A DNA stretch of 44,127 bases from NCBI GenBank assembly GCA_943357105.1, contig CALRGC010000004.1, positions 22,640 to 66,766 on the forward strand, read 5' to 3'. Of the stretch, positions 5,414 through 33,911 are shown piece after piece. The position numbers and the translations under genes are program-made. The notes below the pieces were generated by a model. It had not been told where the DNA came from. It worked only from the letters and a program-made list of their open reading frames with translations, and did no database searches. This stretch comes from Candidatus Magasanikiibacteriota bacterium (lineage in GTDB: Bacteria; Patescibacteriota; Patescibacteriia; Magasanikbacterales; GWA2-37-8). Positions within the stretch are counted from its first letter, which is position 1; the number at the start of each line of letters is the position of its first letter.

Positions 5414-6817
5414 TTATTTTCCTTTAATGAATGGAGAGCCTACTGATATTATATCATAGCCTAAATTCTGCAATTCATCAAACCGCGCCGCGAGCATACG
5501 ACGGCCGTCCATTATCAAATAAGGCGCTGGACAAATTAACTTAATCACTTCATCTAACGCTCTAAATTTAGGCCAATCGGTAAGAATCATACAAGCTTCT
5601 GTGCCCGACAAGGCTTCTTTCTCTGAATCAAAATAACTAATCACGTCATATCGTGAATCTTTCGCTGGATCAAATAAATGTTTAAACATTGGCATCGCGG
5701 CTGGATCATAAATTTTTATCTCCCCCACGCCTTCATCTACCAAATGGCGCACAATATCGATAGCGCCGGAATTACGAACATCGTTGGTATCCTGTTTAAA
5801 CGCCACACCCATAATCGCGACACTCTTTTTTGACCAATCAAAATTTGCTTCCTTTTTTGCTCGACTGAAAAAATTATCGCGCTGAAAATTATTGGATACC
5901 AGGGTCTGACGAACATAGCCCGCATTTACCCCAACTTCTTCCAACTGATGAGCTAGAGAAGCGGCATCTTTGATAAAACAGCTACCACCACAATAGACAC
6001 TATCATAAAAACCCCAGCTACCGATACGATCATCGCTGATTAATACTTTTCTTAAATTCTCAAAATTAATCTGTGGGAAAGATTCACACACACGGCCAAC
6101 GACATCAAAAGTAGTCGTGACTCTATTAAACAATAAATAATTAGCCAGTAATTTACCGGCAGCGGCTTCTTGTGGGTTAGTCTCTATATATTTAATGCTG
6201 GGAGAATTTAAAAACCTGGCATATACCTGACGCATTATCTTAAAATCTTCTTCCTTATTACCACCAACCACAACTCTATCGGGATGAACCGAGCCTTCAA
6301 TGGCTTTGCCCTCTACCAAAAATTCCGGATTGGAAACAACTCCAAAATTATTTACACCGTACTTTGTCATCACTCTATTGGTCTCCTCAATCATATTTAC
6401 TGGTACTGTACTCTTGTTAATAATTACCACATACTTGCTTTGAGTGTTGTTATTTCTTTTTACTAAATTTTGAGCTAATTTTTCAGCCGCTAAATAATAG
6501 TAAGTAAGATCGGATTCACCTTCAGCCCCTTCTTTTTCCGGGGTTGGCAGACACATAAAAATCGCATCCACTGTATCCAAATATTTTATTACCTGATCAT
6601 AGTCAGCAGTAAATAAAATATGATCTTTATTTTTAATCAACATCTCTGCCAGCCCTTCCTCAAGCAGACAAGATTCAATCATCTCAATATTATTGGAACC
6701 TAATTTTTTAACTTTTTCTTTATCCACATCATACAACAAAACATCATGGCCAGAATCGACCATTACGGCGGCTGAACATGTGCCTACATATCCTGATCCA
6801 ATATATAAAATTTTCAT
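5414..6817 (-). CDS. ugd: UDP-glucose/GDP-mannose dehydrogenase family enzyme with canonical catalytic Cys (UDP-glucose 6-dehydrogenase-like)
   Basis: MKILYIGSGYVGT N-terminus, NPEFLVEGKAIEG, GGSCFIKDAASL (catalytic Cys present). The track start at 6862 adds 15 residues and overlaps the upstream gene. The ATG at 6817 gives the normal N-terminus. Confidence 0.8.
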   Translation of the reverse strand: MKILYIGSGYVGTCSAAVMVDSGHDVLLYDVDKEKVKKLGSNNIEMIESCLLEEGLAEMLIKNKDHILFTADYDQVIKYLDTVDAIFMCLPTPEKEGAEGESDLTYYYLAAEKLAQNLVKRNNNTQSKYVVIINKSTVPVNMIEETNRVMTKYGVNNFGVVSNPEFLVEGKAIEGSVHPDRVVVGGNKEEDFKIMRQVYARFLNSPSIKYIETNPQEAAAGKLLANYLLFNRVTTTFDVVGRVCESFPQINFENLRKVLISDDRIGSWGFYDSVYCGGSCFIKDAASLAHQLEEVGVNAGYVRQTLVSNNFQRDNFFSRAKKEANFDWSKKSVAIMGVAFKQDTNDVRNSGAIDIVRHLVDEGVGEIKIYDPAAMPMFKHLFDPAKDSRYDVISYFDSEKEALSGTEACMILTDWPKFRALDEVIKLICPAPYLIMDGRRMLAARFDELQNLGYDIISVGSPFIKGK

Positions 6818-26215: not shown

Positions 26216-26938
26216 TTATAGCTGTTGTAAGGCTTTGTTGGCATCATCTAAAAACTGGACAACAGTTTCTTTTGTTCGAGCTGACAACAGACATTTCGCG
26301 ATTACCTCCGGAGGTATAGTAAGAATATGCGCACCGCTCTTACTCCACAGATCCACATTCTCCGGACTGCGCACGGAACCAACAATTATTTCAATATTTT
26401 TATAATTATGAAAATCAAGCCACTGTCTCACTTCTTTTAGCACTTTTTGCGCTTGCTCCACCCCGTGCTCCTCGGAAATTCTACCCGCAAAAATACTTAT
26501 AAAATGCGTTTTTTTAACTTGACTTTTTGATAAACCGGCATTAATAGCCTTGGCAGCCAAAATAGCCTGATTAAAGGTCATCATGGCGGTAACGTTGACC
26601 GAAATACCTTCAGAAACCAGCTGATAAATAGCCGGCAAAAGCGAGCTACCGTTTCTATCAGTGATGGTAACTTTTACTGAAATATTTTCGGCCCAAGCAT
26701 TATACTTTCTAGCCTCAACAAGAATTTCGTCAATCTTATCTGTTGTCACTTCCACACTTAATGGACGAGGTGCAATCAAAGCGGCGATCTCAAGCGCTCT
26801 TTTTTTTATTCCTTCTTCACCACCTTTAACGCCAGATTTTAAACAAATACTTGGATTGGTAGTAACACCATCACAAAGCCCCCAACTTATATATTTTTCA
26901 ACTTCTCCGACTTCGGCACTATCGATAAATATTTTCAT
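26216..26938 (-). CDS. Transaldolase / fructose-6-phosphate aldolase family (class I aldolase, TalC/FSA type)
   Basis: MKIFIDSAEVGEVEKYISWGLCDGVTTNPS and ISVKVT (Schiff-base Lys position), 240 aa. Confidence 0.75.
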   Translation of the reverse strand: MKIFIDSAEVGEVEKYISWGLCDGVTTNPSICLKSGVKGGEEGIKKRALEIAALIAPRPLSVEVTTDKIDEILVEARKYNAWAENISVKVTITDRNGSSLLPAIYQLVSEGISVNVTAMMTFNQAILAAKAINAGLSKSQVKKTHFISIFAGRISEEHGVEQAQKVLKEVRQWLDFHNYKNIEIIVGSVRSPENVDLWSKSGAHILTIPPEVIAKCLLSARTKETVVQFLDDANKALQQL

Positions 26939-26952
26939 ATTATTTATAATAA

Positions 26953-27468
26953 TTAAATAAAATCAAACATTTCCCTAATATTAGTAATTACATAATCTGC
27001 CAACTCCACAGCATCATTATTGTATTCACGTTGCAACAGAATTGTTTTGCAACCAGCGGCTTTACCTGCCAACATATCGCGTCTTGTATCTCCTAATAGA
27101 TACGACTTAGTTAAATCAATACCATTTTTTTCGGCTGATTTTATGATTAGACCCGGTTCTGGTTTACGACAACTGCATTGATCAAGATCGTCATGCGGGC
27201 AAAGATTAATCTCATCAACCAGCAACTCCTTTTCTAACAAAGCGTGCATCTCGTCCAATATTTCTACAGCCATGAGACCGCGCGCGATATCCGGTTGGTT
27301 AGTAACGATAATATTTTTAAATTCAAGCTCTCTTGTTCTTTGAAAATGTTCGCTAATTTCTTGCGTTAACTTAAAATCTATAAATTTTCTTGGACTCAAC
27401 GCCTTATTGTTAACAATCGTAACCTCATTAATAACTCCATCACGATCCCAGAAGATGGCCTTTGTCAT
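26953..27468 (-). CDS. gmhB: D-glycero-D-manno-heptose 1,7-bisphosphate phosphatase (HAD, GmhB type)
   Basis: AIFWDRDGVINE (DxD nucleophile motif), the zinc-finger insert CPHDDLDQCSCRKP (CxHx6CxC RKP) and LLGDTRRD. Confidence 0.75.
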   Translation of the reverse strand: MTKAIFWDRDGVINEVTIVNNKALSPRKFIDFKLTQEISEHFQRTRELEFKNIIVTNQPDIARGLMAVEILDEMHALLEKELLVDEINLCPHDDLDQCSCRKPEPGLIIKSAEKNGIDLTKSYLLGDTRRDMLAGKAAGCKTILLQREYNNDAVELADYVITNIREMFDFI

Positions 27469-28034
27469 AACTGCTTTAGCAAATTTACTAACAAATGATT
27501 GACTAATAATTGAAAATCCTCAGTATAAGGAGTTATCATAGATTCTTCGACTGTTGGGACTACCAAGCAAGCATCGGCCATTTGAGCGGTAACACCGGTG
27601 TTTCTACCAACAACCCCAAGAATTTTTGCTCCCACAACTTTCGCGTACTCTATTGCCTGCACTAAATTTTTAGAGACGGTTTGTGTGCCTCCGCCAACCG
27701 AAAAAATAAATAGACAATCTTTGGCGGTAAAATGATGCATTTCTAGTTGGCGTTTGAAAACTGAGTCCCAACCTTCATCATTCGCCAAAGCACTAAACAA
27801 TGCTACGTTATCGGTAAGACAAAAAGTAGAGATATTGGCGATTTTATTAAAATCATTAGTAGCGTGGGAAGCCGAGGCTGCCCCTCCACCTATCCCTAAA
27901 AAAAATACTCTTCCTTGTGATTCCCGTGTGATTAAAAGAACATCAGCCATTTTTTCTAAATTCTCACGACTACAACTTTCAGCTATTTGAGCTGATCTTT
28001 TTAAATATAGATCAATAAAGTTATGCTTGTCCAT
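27465..28034 (-). CDS. gmhA: SIS-domain sedoheptulose-7-phosphate isomerase (GmhA-like)
   Basis: 189-aa single SIS domain with FFLGIGGGAASASHATNDF, FIFSVGGGT and GAKILGVVG. ATGA overlap with gmhB. Confidence 0.7.
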   Translation of the reverse strand: MDKHNFIDLYLKRSAQIAESCSRENLEKMADVLLITRESQGRVFFLGIGGGAASASHATNDFNKIANISTFCLTDNVALFSALANDEGWDSVFKRQLEMHHFTAKDCLFIFSVGGGTQTVSKNLVQAIEYAKVVGAKILGVVGRNTGVTAQMADACLVVPTVEESMITPYTEDFQLLVNHLLVNLLKQL

Positions 28035-28039
28035 AAATG

Positions 28040-29041
28040 CTAAAAATTAATAATTTTTTTATTTTTAGATGAAGAATACAAACCAGCTATTAATTTATTG
28101 GCCATCATACCATCAAAACCGTTGCCATTCGGCTGAATCTTTTTGGCAATAGATGATCTAAAATTCTTCCATTCTTCTTCCCATGATGTATCACGATCAT
28201 AAAAAAAATCTTGCTCCGCAGGTCGGGTGCCAAGTTCTTTTCTCCTACCAATTTTCAACGTTTCTCTGCCGTAACTGCCTCCTTTTCCTTCAATATTAAT
28301 ATATCCTCTCTTACCAAAAATGTCAATCATAAATCTATTTTTCCATTGGGTGGCACTGACGTGCATTTGAGCGACCTTACCGTCAAATGTACGAAGGGTA
28401 CAGAAAGCATTATCATCCAATTTTGATTTGTCCCAAAACATATTTTCACAGAACGCCATACCTTCTTTAAACTCCCCTAAAAACCAACGAAAAAGGTCGA
28501 GTATATGAACGCCTTGGTCAAGCAATTCACCTCCGCCAGAAAATTTTTCATTCATTCTCCATTCCAAATCATAGCCTTTTCTTCCACCGTGGCCATAAAC
28601 TGCGCGCATGTACATCAATTCACCGATCGCCCCTTTGGCTACTAAATCGTGCGCTTTTCGCACTGCTAAATGAAAGCGATGATTAAAACCAACTTTTAAC
28701 ATTACCTTATTTTTTTGGGCGTATGTGTAAATTTTTTTTGCTTCAAGATAATTAATTCCTAACGGTTTTTCACACAAAATATTTTTCTTATAACGTATCG
28801 CTTCCAAACACAGTGGCGCGGAAACATTACTAACAGTAGCGATAATAACAGCCTCAATATTTTTATCTTTAAAAATATCCGTGCTACTTTTGGCTATAGC
28901 ACATCCGACTTTTTGCGCCAAAGCAGTGCTTCTCACTAGATCGGTATCAAAAATGGACACAATCCTATCTTTTTTAAATTTCATAATAACTTCTGCCCGT
29001 TTAGCACCAATAAACCCCGCTCCGATAATACCAACGTTCAT
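28040..29041 (-). CDS. Gfo/Idh/MocA-family NAD(P)-dependent oxidoreductase
   Basis: MNVGIIGAGFIGAKRA Rossmann N-terminus and the ILCEKPL motif, 333 aa. Confidence 0.75.
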   Translation of the reverse strand: MNVGIIGAGFIGAKRAEVIMKFKKDRIVSIFDTDLVRSTALAQKVGCAIAKSSTDIFKDKNIEAVIIATVSNVSAPLCLEAIRYKKNILCEKPLGINYLEAKKIYTYAQKNKVMLKVGFNHRFHLAVRKAHDLVAKGAIGELMYMRAVYGHGGRKGYDLEWRMNEKFSGGGELLDQGVHILDLFRWFLGEFKEGMAFCENMFWDKSKLDDNAFCTLRTFDGKVAQMHVSATQWKNRFMIDIFGKRGYINIEGKGGSYGRETLKIGRRKELGTRPAEQDFFYDRDTSWEEEWKNFRSSIAKKIQPNGNGFDGMMANKLIAGLYSSSKNKKIINF

Positions 29042-29044
29042 ATA

Positions 29045-29902
29045 TTACTTAATTATTTCTTGAAAATACTTATTGTCGATACGACGCAATGTAAGTTCCG
29101 AAGATTTTTTTAAACGTTCCAGTTCAACTTCATTCCATTCATTCCAACTATCCCATTTGGCGCTAATTAACTTACCAGTAAGATTAAGAGAGCGATCACT
29201 AACCAAAAACGCAGTCAAGTCAGCCGCCAATTGTGGCGAATCTCCACCATCTTTTTTTTGATTAACAATTTTTTCGTAAAATTTTTCTCCGACCATTTTG
29301 GCGCCAGCCTCTAACGATTCGTCAAGTAGTCTAGTATTCACTGCGCCTGGTGCGATGGCGTTAATTTGAATATTGTAAGATTTATATTCCTCAGCAATTG
29401 TTTCGGTGAAACGAACGACTGCCGCCTTGGAAGTGGCGTAACTGGAAAAATTGGGGAACGTATTGACCGCACCGCCGCCGGAAAAATTAATTATTTTACC
29501 GGCTTTATTTTTAAGCATTATTGGTAAGACAGCATGGGTACAGTGCGCTGTTCCCACCAGATTGATCTGGATAGTTTTAGTCCAAAGACATATATCGTTA
29601 GTATCAAATTGACCAATCGGCCCATATACACCGGCGGCATTGACCAAAATATCAATAGTGTGAAATTTTTCTATAACAAATTGAACAACTTTTTTTACTT
29701 GTTCATAGTCCGAAACATCAGCCTCTTTTATTACTATAGTTAGTCCGACCGCGTTTAGCTCATTTTGAAGAATTTTTAACTCATCAAGCGATCGAGAAAT
29801 AGCCACGACTCGACAGCCTTGTCTAGCCAGCGTTTCCACAATAGTCCGACCGATCCCCTTGCTGCCCCCCGTGATAAGGGCTACTTTGTCTTGTAATATC
29901 AT
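29045..29902 (-). CDS. Classical short-chain dehydrogenase/reductase (FabG-like SDR)
   Basis: KVALITGGSKGIGR, NAAG and SSYATSKAAV (YxxxK). The probable start is 29902 (MILQDKVALITGG); the track start at 29953 runs into the upstream gene. Confidence 0.75.
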   Translation of the reverse strand: MILQDKVALITGGSKGIGRTIVETLARQGCRVVAISRSLDELKILQNELNAVGLTIVIKEADVSDYEQVKKVVQFVIEKFHTIDILVNAAGVYGPIGQFDTNDICLWTKTIQINLVGTAHCTHAVLPIMLKNKAGKIINFSGGGAVNTFPNFSSYATSKAAVVRFTETIAEEYKSYNIQINAIAPGAVNTRLLDESLEAGAKMVGEKFYEKIVNQKKDGGDSPQLAADLTAFLVSDRSLNLTGKLISAKWDSWNEWNEVELERLKKSSELTLRRIDNKYFQEIIK

Positions 29903-29912
29903 ACAATTGAAA

Positions 29913-31217
29913 TTATTTAGCGTTAAAGCCAATACCATAATATCTAAAACCATTCTTCTTTATACCTTCTGAATCCAAAAAATTCTTACAGTCTACAACC
30001 ACTGCCTTCGGTGCTATTTTTTTTATTTTCGCGAAATCAAGTTCTTTAAACTCAGGCCAATCCGTGACAAGCAAAATTGCCACTACGTCAGCTACTGCAC
30101 TGTAAGCATCAGTGGCGAGCTGTATATTTTCCAAAATTTTCAAAGGAGAAGTTATTTTCGGATCAAACGCCTTGACCCGAGCGCCGGCTCGCAATAATTT
30201 CTTAGCCAACTCGACAGACATAGAACGACGCAAGGTGCTAGTTCCAGGTTTATATGTGAGTCCAAGAATGGCGATTTTTTTATTTTTTAGAGAGCCTACG
30301 CTATTTTTTATTTTTTCAATAACTTTTTTCTGACGAGCTTGATTTACCTCTCGAACAGCATTTATTAAATGCATTTTTACTGAACGTAATTTTCCTAAAT
30401 TACTTAAAATAGCGATATCTCGACCAAGTGTTCCACCCGCATAACCCATACCAGGACTTAGAAAAGCCTGTGCGCCGATACGCCGATCGGCTTTGAGTCC
30501 AGCGGCCACACGACGCACGTCCGCTCCGGTAACCTCACACATGTCAGCAATTTCATTGATGAAACTAATTGACATAGCCAAAAAAGCATTCGTAGCGTGT
30601 TTAACCATTTCCGCACTTTCAAGGTCCATATAAAATTTCGGAGCATCAATTACTTTATAAAAATCTTCCACCGTCCTCTGCACCGTTACATCCTCCAGAC
30701 CAATAATTACTCGATCTGGTTCCAAAAATTTTTTGATCGCCTGGCCGAGCATAATATTTTCCGGATTATACACAATCGTGCATTTCATTGACGCTCGAAG
30801 CTTTAGCATAAACTGCTTTAAAAATCGACAACTACCGATAGGCACCTGGCTCATGATAATAATTATACAATCATCAGAGGCAAACTGAGCGATTTTTTCA
30901 CAGGCTTTGTAGATCACCGTCATATCAGGCTCATCATGACTATTGACCGGAGTATCAAAAGCGATAACAATAAACTTCTTTTTTTCTAAAGCACTTTTGA
31001 AGTCAGTAGTAAAATTGAGTCTCCCCTTTGCCTTATTTTTCTTAATAAGATCCGCTAAACCAGGTTCAAATAATGGAGGCAAGTTTGATTCTAAATCATG
31101 CATTATTTTTTTATCAAAATCAATACCAGTTACCAGATAACCTTTGTCAGCTAAACCGGCGGAAACGGTACACCCCAAATGCCATAAACCGATAACAGCT
31201 ACTTTAGTTTCGCTCAT
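29913..31217 (-). CDS. UDP-glucose/GDP-mannose dehydrogenase family protein with the catalytic Cys replaced by Thr
   Basis: KVAVIGLWHLGC, NPENIMLGQA and EMVKHATNAFLA (Lys/Asn retained). FLSPGMGYAGGTLGRDIAIL aligns with the canonical FL.PG.GFGGSCFPKD, placing Thr263 (codon ACA, rc of 30429-30431) at the nucleophile position. Confidence 0.8.
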   Translation of the reverse strand: MSETKVAVIGLWHLGCTVSAGLADKGYLVTGIDFDKKIMHDLESNLPPLFEPGLADLIKKNKAKGRLNFTTDFKSALEKKKFIVIAFDTPVNSHDEPDMTVIYKACEKIAQFASDDCIIIIMSQVPIGSCRFLKQFMLKLRASMKCTIVYNPENIMLGQAIKKFLEPDRVIIGLEDVTVQRTVEDFYKVIDAPKFYMDLESAEMVKHATNAFLAMSISFINEIADMCEVTGADVRRVAAGLKADRRIGAQAFLSPGMGYAGGTLGRDIAILSNLGKLRSVKMHLINAVREVNQARQKKVIEKIKNSVGSLKNKKIAILGLTYKPGTSTLRRSMSVELAKKLLRAGARVKAFDPKITSPLKILENIQLATDAYSAVADVVAILLVTDWPEFKELDFAKIKKIAPKAVVVDCKNFLDSEGIKKNGFRYYGIGFNAK

Positions 31218-31237
31218 ATACTAAAATTAATATAATT

Positions 31238-32224
31238 TTAAAAATTAACAATCACTTTTGACCCCTCTTCCTCGAACCTGAAAGGCATTTCTACCAAACC
31301 ATTCTGTTTCATCGCGTTGCGAATACCATTTTTGTCACCTGGACAATAAAAAACTAAAAAACCACCACCACCCGCTCCCATAATCTTACCGCCTAAAGCA
31401 CCGTGCTCTTTAGCTAACGCATATAATTTGTCAATTTTTGGATCAGACATTTTGGTTGACATTGTCTTTTTTATTTGCCAATGATCATCCATAAGTCTAC
31501 CAAAATCATCCAACTCGCCTTTTTCAATGGCGTTTTTAATTTCTATTCCAATTTCTTTAATCTTTAACAATGATTGTGTCACGTCGCTCTGTTTATTTTC
31601 AGCGGCTGTACTTTGTTCACCAAGAATATTCATCGCATCGCGAGAGATACCGGTATAAAAAATAACTAACCTATTTTGCAACTTCTCTATTGTATCTGGC
31701 GCGATCTGCGCGTTTGATACTTCTACTCGTCCATTACGATCAATATTCATAATGGTAAAACCACCAAATGCCGCCAGATACTGATCCTGCTTCCCCACCG
31801 GTTTGTGCAATAGATCAATCTCAATATGACAAGCTTCCTCGGCTAATTCTTGAACGCTTAAACCCTTGTGTGTTAATGCTTGTAGACCCTTTAAAAGACC
31901 AACGAGATATGAGCCAGACGAACCCATTCCAGTACCTTCCGGCACATCGGCCATTGAGGCAATCTCAATACTGTCTTTAATACCATAATATTCCAAAGCA
32001 GCGCGGGCAAGCTGATGTTGTACCTGCGTCACATTTTCTACCATCTCCGTACGTGAATATTTAAGGCGTATAAGCGAATCAACCACTGGTCGGTTTATAG
32101 TAATATACATATACTTATCAATCGCCACACTAAACAAAAAACCGCCGTGCTGTTTGTAAAAAGCAGGTAAGTCAGTACCTCCACCACCCAGAGGAATTCT
32201 AAAAGGTGTTCGCGTTAAAATCAT
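31238..32224 (-). CDS. hddA: GHMP-family sugar kinase, D-glycero-alpha-D-manno-heptose 7-phosphate kinase-like
   Basis: MILTRTPFRIPLGGGGTDLPAFY, PEGTGMGSSGS (GHMP motif II) and GAGGGGFLVFY. Confidence 0.7.
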   Translation of the reverse strand: MILTRTPFRIPLGGGGTDLPAFYKQHGGFLFSVAIDKYMYITINRPVVDSLIRLKYSRTEMVENVTQVQHQLARAALEYYGIKDSIEIASMADVPEGTGMGSSGSYLVGLLKGLQALTHKGLSVQELAEEACHIEIDLLHKPVGKQDQYLAAFGGFTIMNIDRNGRVEVSNAQIAPDTIEKLQNRLVIFYTGISRDAMNILGEQSTAAENKQSDVTQSLLKIKEIGIEIKNAIEKGELDDFGRLMDDHWQIKKTMSTKMSDPKIDKLYALAKEHGALGGKIMGAGGGGFLVFYCPGDKNGIRNAMKQNGLVEMPFRFEEEGSKVIVNF

Positions 32225-32247
32225 AATATTAAATTTTATAGATAAAA

Positions 32248-32964
32248 TTATTTTATTTTTTTAAAAAATGTCTGAGTCTTTTCATAGCATTCTATCGTAT
32301 CACACCCAAAAACATATTCTTTATCACCAAGCTGGTAAGTGTTTATAGTAATACCATTTTGTAAAAGTTGTGGGAATAGATCTTTGCCAAAATCGTACTT
32401 TTGTCCAGTGGGGATATATTTAAAAATTTTAGGATCAAGTACATATACTCCGGCGTTGACTAGATCGCTAATTGCCGCACCACCCTCAATAAATTGACGC
32501 ACGCTGTGATCTTCATTAATGAGCACACGACCACCGGCAATGCCGCTATTCTTGTTCTTTTTTATATCAAAGAGCGCTATTGTACAAATAGCTTTACTTT
32601 TCTGATGAGCCAATAAAAGCGAAGCCAGATTACAGTTGGTAAAATTATCGCCATATAAAAGGAAAAATGGTTCGGTTAATTTCTCTTCAACATTTTTTAC
32701 ACCGCCGGCGCTACCAAGTAATTCTTTTTCTTTGGAATAATCAATATGTACACCAAACTGATTACCATCCTGAAAATAATCGACGATCTTGTTTGGTTGA
32801 TAATATACATTGATAACCAAATCTCTAATTCCATAACTCTTGGCTAAATTAATATTATGCTCCAAAAGCGGCTTACCGCCGATCTCAACCATAACTTTTG
32901 AAATAGTATCAGTCAATGGACGCAACCTAGTTCCCTCTCCAGCGGCTAAAATCATTGCTTTCAT
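32248..32964 (-). CDS. hddC: Sugar-1-phosphate nucleotidyltransferase, heptose-1-phosphate guanylyltransferase-like
   Basis: MKAMILAAGEGTRLRPLT signature, 238 aa, immediately upstream of the hddA-like kinase. Confidence 0.65.
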   Translation of the reverse strand: MKAMILAAGEGTRLRPLTDTISKVMVEIGGKPLLEHNINLAKSYGIRDLVINVYYQPNKIVDYFQDGNQFGVHIDYSKEKELLGSAGGVKNVEEKLTEPFFLLYGDNFTNCNLASLLLAHQKSKAICTIALFDIKKNKNSGIAGGRVLINEDHSVRQFIEGGAAISDLVNAGVYVLDPKIFKYIPTGQKYDFGKDLFPQLLQNGITINTYQLGDKEYVFGCDTIECYEKTQTFFKKIK

Positions 32965-33911
32965 AGTACGTGCTGTTTAATGTAAGCGATTTGTTCTTTA
33001 ATTCCTTGTTCAAGAGTGGTCTGTGGTTGCCAACCAAGGGCACGCAATTTGGCGCAATCAGCGAGCGTTATTTCAGCTTCACCAGTTAAATTATTCAGGT
33101 ATTGCGCTTCGACATGAACCCCAACGAGGTCTTTAATTATTTTATAAATTTCATTTACAGAATAATTTTTGCCAGAACCAATATTATAGACTTCATTATT
33201 CGCCTTTTCTTCGTTCATCAAAAGTACGTGGGCGTCGTTGATATCATCAACATAAATAAAATCACGCTTTTTTTCTCCGGTGCCGTATATAACCGGCTGT
33301 TTGCCCTGCAATAACTGAATAATGAAAGCGGACATAAGCGGTGGAATGGTCCGACGATAATCTTGTCGGGGACCGTACACATTAAAATAACGCAAACCGA
33401 TACTGTCCAAATTATAAAATTCTTTATAAGCCTGCGCAAAATGGTGTCCAGCTACTTTACTACGAGCATAAAAACTGTGTGGGGCCACCGCGCTTTCGGG
33501 CGTAGGAAATTGATTACTTCCTTCATATACCGCCGAACTTTCGGCGTAAATCACTTTTTTAACGCCAGCGCGCACACTTGCCTCAAATACATTGACTGTC
33601 CCAGTCACATTGATATCGGACGTAGCGAGCGGATCCTTTTGACAATCACTGATACAATTCTTGGCCGCCAGATGAAAAACATATTTTACACCTTCAAAAA
33701 GCGGATATATTTTCTTTGATCGAATATCGATCTCATGAAAAACAACACCGGCCGGAATTTGTTCTCGAACGCCATACGAAAGATTATCTATACCAACTAC
33801 TTCATATCCTTCCTGGAGTAGCCTGACCGCGAGATTGCTTCCGATAAAACCGGCGACACCGGTGATTAGAACTTTTGTCATATTCAAATTTAAAAATTTA
33901 CTATGATCCAA
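32961..33911 (-). CDS. NAD-dependent nucleotide-sugar epimerase/dehydratase (extended SDR)
   Basis: [19 protein letters not shown] (YxxxK) and RYFNVYGPRQ. An alternative start at 33881 (MTKVLITG) would remove the 11-nt overlap with the upstream gene. Confidence 0.75.
   Translation of the reverse strand: MDHSKFLNLNMTKVLITGVAGFIGSNLAVRLLQEGYEVVGIDNLSYGVREQIPAGVVFHEIDIRSKKIYPLFEGVKYVFHLAAKNCISDCQKDPLATSDINVTGTVNVFEASVRAGVKKVIYAESSAVYEGSNQFPTPESAVAPHSFYARSKVAGHHFAQAYKEFYNLDSIGLRYFNVYGPRQDYRRTIPPLMSAFIIQLLQGKQPVIYGTGEKKRDFIYVDDINDAHVLLMNEEKANNEVYNIGSGKNYSVNEIYKIIKDLVGVHVEAQYLNNLTGEAEITLADCAKLRALGWQPQTTLEQGIKEQIAYIKQHVL

Follow-up and report, generated by a model that had tools for sequence, protein, structure and literature searches.

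The stretch analysed here, hereafter the window, comprises 44,127 nucleotides of contig CALRGC010000004.1 (positions 22,640 to 66,766 of the forward strand) from assembly GCA_943357105.1 of a Candidatus Magasanikiibacteriota bacterium. It encodes two members of the UDP-glucose dehydrogenase (UGDH) family. One of them, P0001, has a threonine in place of the catalytic cysteine and is the subject of this work; the other provides an internal control.

29913 to 31217, minus strand: P0001, a Thr-type (Cys-less) UGDH-family dehydrogenase of 434 amino acids, assigned from its open reading frame and translation, Pfam, TIGR03026 and an AlphaFold2 model.
5414 to 6817, minus strand: the canonical UGDH paralogue (internal control), with GSGYVG and GGSCFIKD motifs and Pfam/NCBIfam matches.

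The P0001 reading frame is open throughout, with no internal stop, and its product has the three-domain layout of the UGDH superfamily: a Rossmann N-terminal domain (PF03721, 139 bits), a helical central domain (PF00984, 93 bits) and a C-terminal nucleotide-sugar domain (PF03720, 95 bits), all above their cut-offs. P0001 scores 357 bits against TIGR03026, 'nucleotide sugar dehydrogenase', for which the cut-off is 190, and falls below the cut-offs of all the UGDH equivalog models (TuaD, 330 against 700 bits; AglM, 245 against 670; WecC-type, 146 against 459). An AlphaFold2 model made from 36 homologues reached a predicted local distance difference test (pLDDT) score of 93 and a predicted template-modelling (pTM) score of 0.88, and superposed on BceC, UgdG and human UGDH with template-modelling (TM) scores of 0.89-0.93 (0.91-0.92 for BceC and UgdG). 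By fold and domains, P0001 is therefore an intact member of the UGDH superfamily, but one without the defining catalytic features of the four-electron nucleoside diphosphate (NDP)-sugar dehydrogenases, namely the catalytic Cys and the Tyr of the GxGYxG loop. The active-site positions concerned are the following, with canonical numbering given for Streptococcus pyogenes and human UGDH.

30429 to 30431, minus strand: codon ACA, Thr263, at the catalytic Cys site (S. pyogenes Cys260, human Cys276), from alignments and the codon read.
31179 to 31184, minus strand: codons TGG CAT, Trp12-His13, in the GxGYxG dinucleotide loop, where canonical enzymes have the second Gly and the Tyr.
30846 to 30848, minus strand: Gln124, replacing a family-invariant Thr (S. 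pyogenes Thr118, human Thr131), from the motif alignment.
30747 to 30758, minus strand: Asn154 and Leu157 in NPENxxLG (canonical NPEFxxEG), with Glu153 kept just upstream.
30588 to 30611, minus strand: Glu203, Lys206 and Asn210 (EMVKHATN), kept alcohol-oxidation residues.
30417 to 30422, minus strand: Arg266-Asp267 (canonical Lys-Asp), of which the Asp is a kept catalytic residue.

The original prediction, made from the letters of the window, held that the active-site peptide aligns residue for residue with its canonical counterpart and that Thr263 occupies the Cys site. The phmmer alignments of P0001 to the solved UGDHs 4a7p, 3gg2 and 2y0e bear this out, as GYAGGTLGRD pairs with GYGGSCFPKD without a gap in all three; a shift of register that would bring a Cys to the nucleophile site is thereby ruled out. 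The codon read confirmed ACA, and the claim that at least two substitutions separate it from TGY was conservative, since it mismatches TGT and TGC at all three bases. Inspection of the translation agreed that no Cys occurs in the 30 residues downstream of the GG motif, and the Lys/Asn pair and the Asp said to be retained are present as K206, N210 and D267. The exchange is also specific to this gene and not organism-wide, as had been proposed, given that the paralogue carries GGSCFIKD.

Eighteen residues are invariant across 229 NDP-sugar dehydrogenases (Freas et al., 2016; PMC4794789). When its motifs were aligned with those of canonical sequences other than that of S. pyogenes, P0001 was found to keep 14 (G10, G15, T89, S123, P152, E153, E203, K206, N210, N221, G261, D267, N292 and K323) and to exchange four (Gly9 to Trp12, Thr118 to Gln124, Gly257 to Ala260 and Cys260 to Thr263). 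Beyond the 18, Tyr10, which is 98% conserved (PMC4794789), is replaced by His13, the likewise highly conserved Glu145 by Leu157 and Lys263 by Arg266. In canonical enzymes, Lys204/220, with help from Asn208/224, is the base of alcohol oxidation and stabilises the oxyanion, the catalytic water is held by Asp264/280 and the adenosine ribose of NAD is bound by Asp29, while covalent catalysis in the second oxidation falls to Cys260/276 (PMC4794789; PMC3265891). Thr118/131 likewise holds the catalytic water and Tyr10, the residue mutated in the BceC structures of Protein Data Bank entries 2y0c, 2y0d and 2y0e, is assigned to thioester hydrolysis (PMC4794789), for which Glu141/161 is the base in human UGDH (PMC3265891). 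P0001 keeps D33, the counterpart of the ribose-binding Asp.

The exchange at position 263 is shared by a large group of proteins, to a degree well above what chance could produce. Among the 120 best homologues (43-74% identity), Thr stands at the nucleophile site in 119 and His in one. When 376 full-length relatives were pooled, they formed two classes, 330 Thr-type and 46 canonical, with zero intermediates. In the Thr class W12 is found in 321 sequences, H13 in 326, Q124 in 329, N154 in 325, L157 in all 330, Ala or Ser at 260 in 311 and R266 in all 330, and the same columns in the canonical class, with site 263 included, read G, Y, T, F, E, G, C and K (the two residues of the dinucleotide loop being G in 45/46 and Y in 38/46 sequences). 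E203, K206 and N210 are present in 330/330 members of the Thr class, D267 and E153 in 329/330, Asp or Glu at position 33 in 315/330 and T89 in 312/330. The original prediction had proposed a count of Thr and Ser across the family and a search for a clade with conserved neighbours: site 263 is Thr in 325 and His in five of the 330 members, Ser occurs in 0/376 full-length sequences, and the members form a clade with recurrent cassette neighbours. Four His-type members, P0100, P0198, P0216 and P0230, do not group together in the tree; three of them have Glu or Asp at 265 (GGHLERD, GGHLDRD and GMHFERD) and two have E-H at 330-331.

The tree, built with FastTree (LG+gamma, Shimodaira-Hasegawa (SH)-like support), contains 149 sequences (100 non-Cys and 49 Cys), which come from the best 150 representatives of clusters made at 50% identity in a set of 1.84 billion proteins. 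The split between Thr and Cys types had SH-like support of 0.998, which rose to 1.0 once 30 signature columns were masked, so that the clade is not a product of those columns alone. In single-domain trees the central domain recovered the split (0.856) and the N- and C-terminal domains alone did not. A sequencing or assembly error, or a pseudogene, is ruled out by the conservation of Thr and six other exchanges in 330 sequences, and thus over hundreds of independent assemblies. Nor is Cys-to-Thr, which the original prediction had described by itself, a lone substitution: it is part of a clade-wide exchange that also involves W12, H13, Q124, N154, L157, A260 and R266. Since the replacement residues are themselves invariant, the pattern points to a clade-wide and coordinated remodelling of the active site and not to decay. 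The invariant core of the clade is what NAD+-dependent alcohol oxidation needs, and the exchanges have taken away the Cys and the Tyr, which of all the residues belong most specifically to the step from aldehyde to acid, together with several neighbours of C6 and of the nicotinamide. The suggestion that the Cys-less protein may stop at a two-electron product agrees with this, as the residue pattern would fit the alcohol-oxidation half only.

Two other accounts of the active site have to be weighed at this point. P0001 could be a dead enzyme that serves as a substrate-binding or scaffold subunit for the SDR (short-chain dehydrogenase/reductase) and Gfo/Idh/MocA proteins encoded beside it. The loss of the nucleophile, a bulky Trp in the GxGxxG loop that could block NAD binding and the existence of SDR fusions (see below) would suit such a role. 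However, dead enzymes normally lose catalytic residues, and here the catalytic positions listed above, together with Q124, are held at 35-50% overall identity, while the invariance of the replacement residues points to a new function; we consider a pseudoenzyme very unlikely. Alternatively, P0001 might carry out a four-electron oxidation of a terminal primary alcohol to a hepturonic or octuronic acid, by way of a Thr hemiacetal and ester or of a hydrated aldehyde. Histidinol dehydrogenase oxidises a hydrated aldehyde directly; Glu153, the counterpart of the acyl-enzyme hydrolysis base of human UGDH, is almost invariant; and an oxygen nucleophile can reportedly enter the second oxidation, as a Cys-to-Ser mutant of streptococcal UGDH is said to form a covalent ester adduct. 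That ester is, however, said to hydrolyse very slowly, Thr is more hindered than Ser, which occurs at the site in none of the 376 sequences, and the Tyr assigned to thioester hydrolysis has been replaced. The constant pairing with two reductase-type partners would also be unexpected for an acid-forming step, and we regard this second account as improbable.

The clade is widespread. When GTDB species, each represented by a single genome, were scanned for the sequence pattern, at least 600 matches were obtained, with 594 confirmed relatives among the matches listed. Among those matches, bacterial carriers belong to the Patescibacteria, Chloroflexota, Acidobacteriota, Elusimicrobia, Proteobacteria (including Myxococcales), Bacillota and Verrucomicrobiota, and archaeal carriers to the Hadarchaeota, Micrarchaeota, Nitrosopumilaceae, Methanoperedens and Methanospirillum. 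Some carriers are in culture, among them Lawsonia intracellularis, with the gene on a plasmid, and Rhizobium jaguaris, with the gene on a chromid; among the PLSDB plasmids the Thr type was found in Rhizobium and Lawsonia only. Just two hits were found in 400 Actinomycetes genomes, and the 21-species genus reached around genome G043 had canonical enzymes only. Searches of the literature turned up no relevant account of a UGDH lacking the Cys or of a heptose 6-dehydrogenase. The Thr clade is a large, deep, very widespread and uncharacterised branch of the UGDH family. The gene was present in 0/40 genomes from the same genus, family or order as the 0.93-Mb source genome, which makes vertical inheritance in this lineage unlikely; we believe that the gene here is part of a laterally acquired glycan island.

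Within the window, the dehydrogenase gene lies in a co-directional block of nine genes (26216 to 33911, minus strand), the other eight of which are listed here.

32961 to 33911, minus strand: extended-SDR epimerase/dehydratase (GalE/HldD-like; LmbM family).
32248 to 32964, minus strand: sugar-1-phosphate nucleotidyltransferase (HddC/LmbO-like), from Pfam/NCBIfam.
31238 to 32224, minus strand: GHMP kinase (HddA/LmbP-like), from Pfam/NCBIfam.
29045 to 29953, minus strand: classical SDR (adh_short), a partner gene, from Pfam.
28040 to 29041, minus strand: Gfo/Idh/MocA oxidoreductase (LmbZ/CcbZ family), the most constant partner, from Pfam.
27465 to 28034, minus strand: SIS-domain sugar-phosphate isomerase (GmhA/LmbN-like), from Pfam/NCBIfam.
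26953 to 27468, minus strand: HAD-IIIA phosphatase (GmhB/LmbK-like), from Pfam/NCBIfam.
26216 to 26938, minus strand: transaldolase/FSA-family aldolase (LmbR family), from Pfam/NCBIfam.

Pfam confirmed the families of the SDR and Gfo/Idh/MocA genes that the original prediction had placed next to the dehydrogenase. The listed start of the SDR gene at 29953 gives a 41-nucleotide overlap with the dehydrogenase gene; an alternative ATG lies in frame at 29902, 10 nucleotides past the dehydrogenase stop and just before KVALITGG. The original prediction had also named the block a GDP-heptose operon. Proteins of the HddA, GmhA, GmhB and HddC families do adjoin the gene, but all four are below the curated NCBIfam equivalog cut-offs (HddA, 168 against 600 bits; GmhA, 63 against 209; HddC, 100 against 300; GmhB, 106 against 178). 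The Rhizobium jaguaris cassette gives 168, 60, 92 and 119 bits for HddA, GmhA, HddC and GmhB, respectively, again all below threshold. Because the sub-threshold scores are nearly equal in two distant hosts, these 'heptose' enzymes form orthologous groups of their own and are more than Patescibacteria proteins that have diverged.

Besides the aldolase of the cassette, the genome encodes another transaldolase (contig C5, 33179-33832; locus L095) and a transketolase (contig C9, 31156-32043; locus L097) outside the window. The supply of sedoheptulose-7-phosphate alone therefore does not explain a dedicated aldolase. The C5 copy scores better than the cassette copy, which is 33% identical to it; in a six-frame search, the C5 match contained one in-frame TAA. 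No aminotransferase was found in the cassette of the window or in the gene lists of four loci (L001, L003, L088 and L101).

The same genes recur around the dehydrogenase in other hosts. We examined 80 loci from distinct GTDB species, 36 of which have at least 8 kb on both sides. The dominant order is dehydrogenase, SDR (+1.1 kb) and Gfo/Idh/MocA (+2.0 kb), with the SDR immediately downstream in 37 of 63 loci; in loci that have no SDR, Gfo/Idh/MocA directly follows the dehydrogenase and is itself followed by an extended SDR. Among the 36 long-flank loci, Gfo/Idh/MocA was found in 34, SDR in 29, GHMP kinase in 29, SIS isomerase in 28, transaldolase in 27, nucleotidyltransferase in 25 and HAD phosphatase in 23, and 26 have transaldolase, SIS and GHMP kinase jointly. 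Members of the broad extended-SDR epimerase family lie within 10 kb of the dehydrogenase in all 36. Around dehydrogenases of just 40-50% identity, the cassette is found again in a Paceibacterota genome, an archaeal-looking contig, an Acidobacteria-type exopolysaccharide locus, a Jatrophihabitans metagenome-assembled genome, Lawsonia and Rhizobium. Fusions of the SDR to the dehydrogenase occur in both orders, with the SDR N-terminal in P0190, P0204 and P0222 and C-terminal in P0262. These fusions are independent of one another and speak for consecutive action on one substrate.

Some individual loci have further features. In Lawsonia intracellularis, an obligate intracellular pathogen of pigs, the full cassette lies on a plasmid of about 194 kb (NZ_CP107055.1, 132633-151928; locus L088), where a lysyl-phosphatidylglycerol-synthase-like membrane protein is encoded between the transaldolase and the dehydrogenase, and two hypothetical proteins of about 1090 amino acids flank the block. 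On a very GC-rich Logan contig (L099), Gfo/Idh/MocA comes directly after the Thr-type dehydrogenase, and next in line is a 347-amino-acid protein with only a faint match to DUF3604. In P0162, a family-2 glycosyltransferase (GT2) is fused N-terminally to the Thr-type dehydrogenase.

A route with a similar set of enzymes is that to the GDP-octose of lincomycin and celesticetin. There, the transaldolase LmbR joins a C3 donor to ribose-5-phosphate to give octulose-8-phosphate (PMC5854111), and the route further comprises the isomerase LmbN, the kinase LmbP, the phosphatase LmbK, the guanylyltransferase LmbO, the epimerase LmbM, the dehydrogenase LmbL, the NAD(P)-dependent oxidoreductase LmbZ and the aminotransferase LmbS (PMC4351081; PMC12945683). 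GDP-octose is converted to GDP-lincosamide by LmbM, LmbL, CcbZ and CcbS (PMC12945683). The gene set of the cassette fits these families no less well than those of a heptose route, and for this reason the substrate may be an octose. The nucleotide-heptose substrate put forward in the original prediction is kept in part, as an option that we think somewhat less likely than an octose.

The data show how the residues are distributed, that there is a clade, which genes accompany it and which fusions occur; the substrate, the site and stoichiometry of oxidation and the roles of the partner enzymes are inferred. We propose, with moderate confidence, that P0001, with NAD+ as acceptor, oxidises an NDP-octose or NDP-heptose by two electrons at its exocyclic C6 hydroxyl, giving a ketone for the Gfo/Idh/MocA and SDR enzymes. 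First, the adjoining transaldolase, SIS isomerase, GHMP kinase, HAD phosphatase and nucleotidyltransferase would build the nucleotide-activated C7 or C8 sugar. Lys206, aided by Asn210 and a water bound by Asp267, would then take the proton of the C6 hydroxyl, and hydride would pass from C6 to NAD+. As C6 of a heptose or octose is a secondary carbinol, the product would be a ketone; with no aldehyde to trap, both the Cys and the Tyr of thioester hydrolysis would become dispensable. Subsequently, the keto-sugar would go to the Gfo/Idh/MocA protein and the SDR, the latter sometimes fused to the dehydrogenase, which would either dehydrate and reduce its side chain or epimerise it. The pathway would end in a C8 or C7 sugar, modified and probably deoxy, that enters a surface glycan. 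With an SDR present and an aminotransferase not, the sugar would be expected to carry a hydroxyl and not an amine.

The Trp-His pair allows for another mechanism, in which Trp12 and His13 clamp the NAD, C6 is oxidised only transiently, His13 acts as acid and base in an enolisation, epimerisation or elimination, and the hydride is returned. P0001 would then itself be a side-chain epimerase or dehydratase and no net dehydrogenase. The pair, which is almost invariant, sits where the canonical Tyr reaches the active site (PMC4794789), the new His is a plausible general base and the Asp that binds the NAD ribose is kept. Yet two oxidoreductases stand constantly alongside, one of them at times fused, and this is easier to understand as the hand-over of a released keto intermediate. 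Moreover, no precedent for such an enzyme is known to us in the UGDH family, and we consider a redox-neutral reaction unlikely. The wealth of oxidoreductases in the cassette, more than a simple dehydration requires, could also be read in the opposite direction. In that case, P0001 would be an NADH-dependent ketoreductase or aldehyde reductase that sets the stereochemistry at C6 (or C7) of a keto-sugar made by the Gfo/Idh/MocA protein, and the first half-reaction of UGDH is indeed chemically reversible. By family precedent, however, the SDR and extended SDR are the more usual reductases, and an Asp33-type site for NAD, not NADP, is typical of catabolic or oxidative use. We therefore hold reduction by P0001 to be improbable as well.

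Several observations weigh against a C6 ketone-forming dehydrogenase of the LmbL kind. The NAD pyrophosphate is normally contacted by the second Gly of GxGxxG; Trp12, which takes the place of this Gly, may alter or abolish the binding of the cofactor. P0001 also keeps Glu153, which serves canonical enzymes as the base of thioester hydrolysis and would allow acyl-type chemistry. Seven of the 36 long-flank loci have no transaldolase, SIS or GHMP genes within 10 kb. The transaldolases of the cassette belong to different subfamilies in different hosts and do not form one orthologous group: the Rhizobium jaguaris aldolase (L089, 15197-15913) passes the 'Staphylococcus-type transaldolase' equivalog with 340 bits against a cut-off of 282, and the window aldolase (26216-26938) reaches only 103 bits there and 119 bits with the FSA/TalC model. 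In 2015, the nearest non-Lmb relative of CcbL was only 33% identical to it (PMC4351081), so that LmbL may be an outlier and may lie outside the Thr clade. Neither LmbL (GenBank ABX00608) nor CcbL is named among the homologue lists or the clusters of the ten most GC-rich clade members, and the contigs that encode P0267 and P0177 are short fragments from metagenomes.

Annotation pipelines label thousands of such genes 'nucleotide sugar dehydrogenase' or 'UDP-glucose 6-dehydrogenase', and as a result metabolic reconstructions credit the carriers with a synthesis of uronic acids that this branch almost certainly cannot perform. Because the clade and its cassette span many phyla, including cultured organisms, a higher-carbon sugar of a new kind may be a widespread component of cell surfaces. 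We suggest, tentatively and as something rather less than probable, that the Thr/His/Trp/Gln signature marks a UGDH fold turned into a C6 keto-forming, possibly enolising or dehydrating, enzyme, that an undescribed sugar of the 8-deoxy-octose type, or a modified heptose, is common in the surface glycans of hundreds of species, and that the lincomycin octose route is an offshoot. If so, these hundreds of carriers would be mostly uncultured bacteria and archaea, including ultra-small Patescibacteria, and the antibiotic route would be a specialised derivative of a primary pathway of the cell envelope. The clade is also a natural experiment that would sort the residues of UGDH into an alcohol-oxidation and an aldehyde-oxidation half, and it offers a Rossmann GxGxxG loop with a conserved Trp.

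Set beside known systems, P0001 has the same three-domain fold (TM score of about 0.9) as the canonical UGDHs UgdG (4a7p), BceC (2y0c), the Porphyromonas gingivalis enzyme (3gg2) and human UGDH (2q3e), to which it is some 36-40% identical by tblastn and phmmer and 27-33% in structural alignments, and it keeps their Lys/Asn/Asp/Glu core and the diphosphate-binding Lys323. The GmhA/HddA/GmhB/HddC families recall the pathway to GDP-D-glycero-alpha-D-manno-heptose, to which the cassette adds dedicated transaldolase, UGDH-like, Gfo/Idh/MocA and SDR genes, a combination that to our knowledge occurs in no described heptose pathway. With the GDP-octose route of lincomycin and celesticetin the cassette has eight of nine enzyme families in common (LmbR, N, P, K, O, M, L and Z). 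In contrast to that route, an SDR stands where the aminotransferase LmbS belongs, and the surroundings are those of a surface-glycan locus, in a genome of 0.93 Mb, instead of an antibiotic cluster. When the Ccb sugar enzymes were compared by BLAST in 2015, their best matches other than Lmb proteins were from Solibacter, Acidobacterium, an uncultured acidobacterium, Sorangium and Methanosarcina (PMC4351081), and Acidobacteria, Myxococcales and methanogenic archaea are among the listed carriers of the cassette. The nearest functional parallel to our proposal is the step assigned to LmbL and LmbZ, with the same proposed enzyme logic. We take LmbL to be a UGDH-family protein and LmbZ a Gfo/Idh/MocA protein; LmbL and CcbZ are reported, in work by Wang and colleagues (PNAS, 2020), to carry out a 6,8-dehydration jointly, which requires no more than a two-electron oxidation, that of the secondary C6 carbinol, as its first step. 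Such chemistry is what a UGDH fold deprived of its Cys would be expected to catalyse. The likeness of P0001 to LmbL lies in enzyme families and gene context. On that context, P0001 may work like LmbL, and the Thr clade would be a widespread new branch whose one published biochemical analogue appears narrow.

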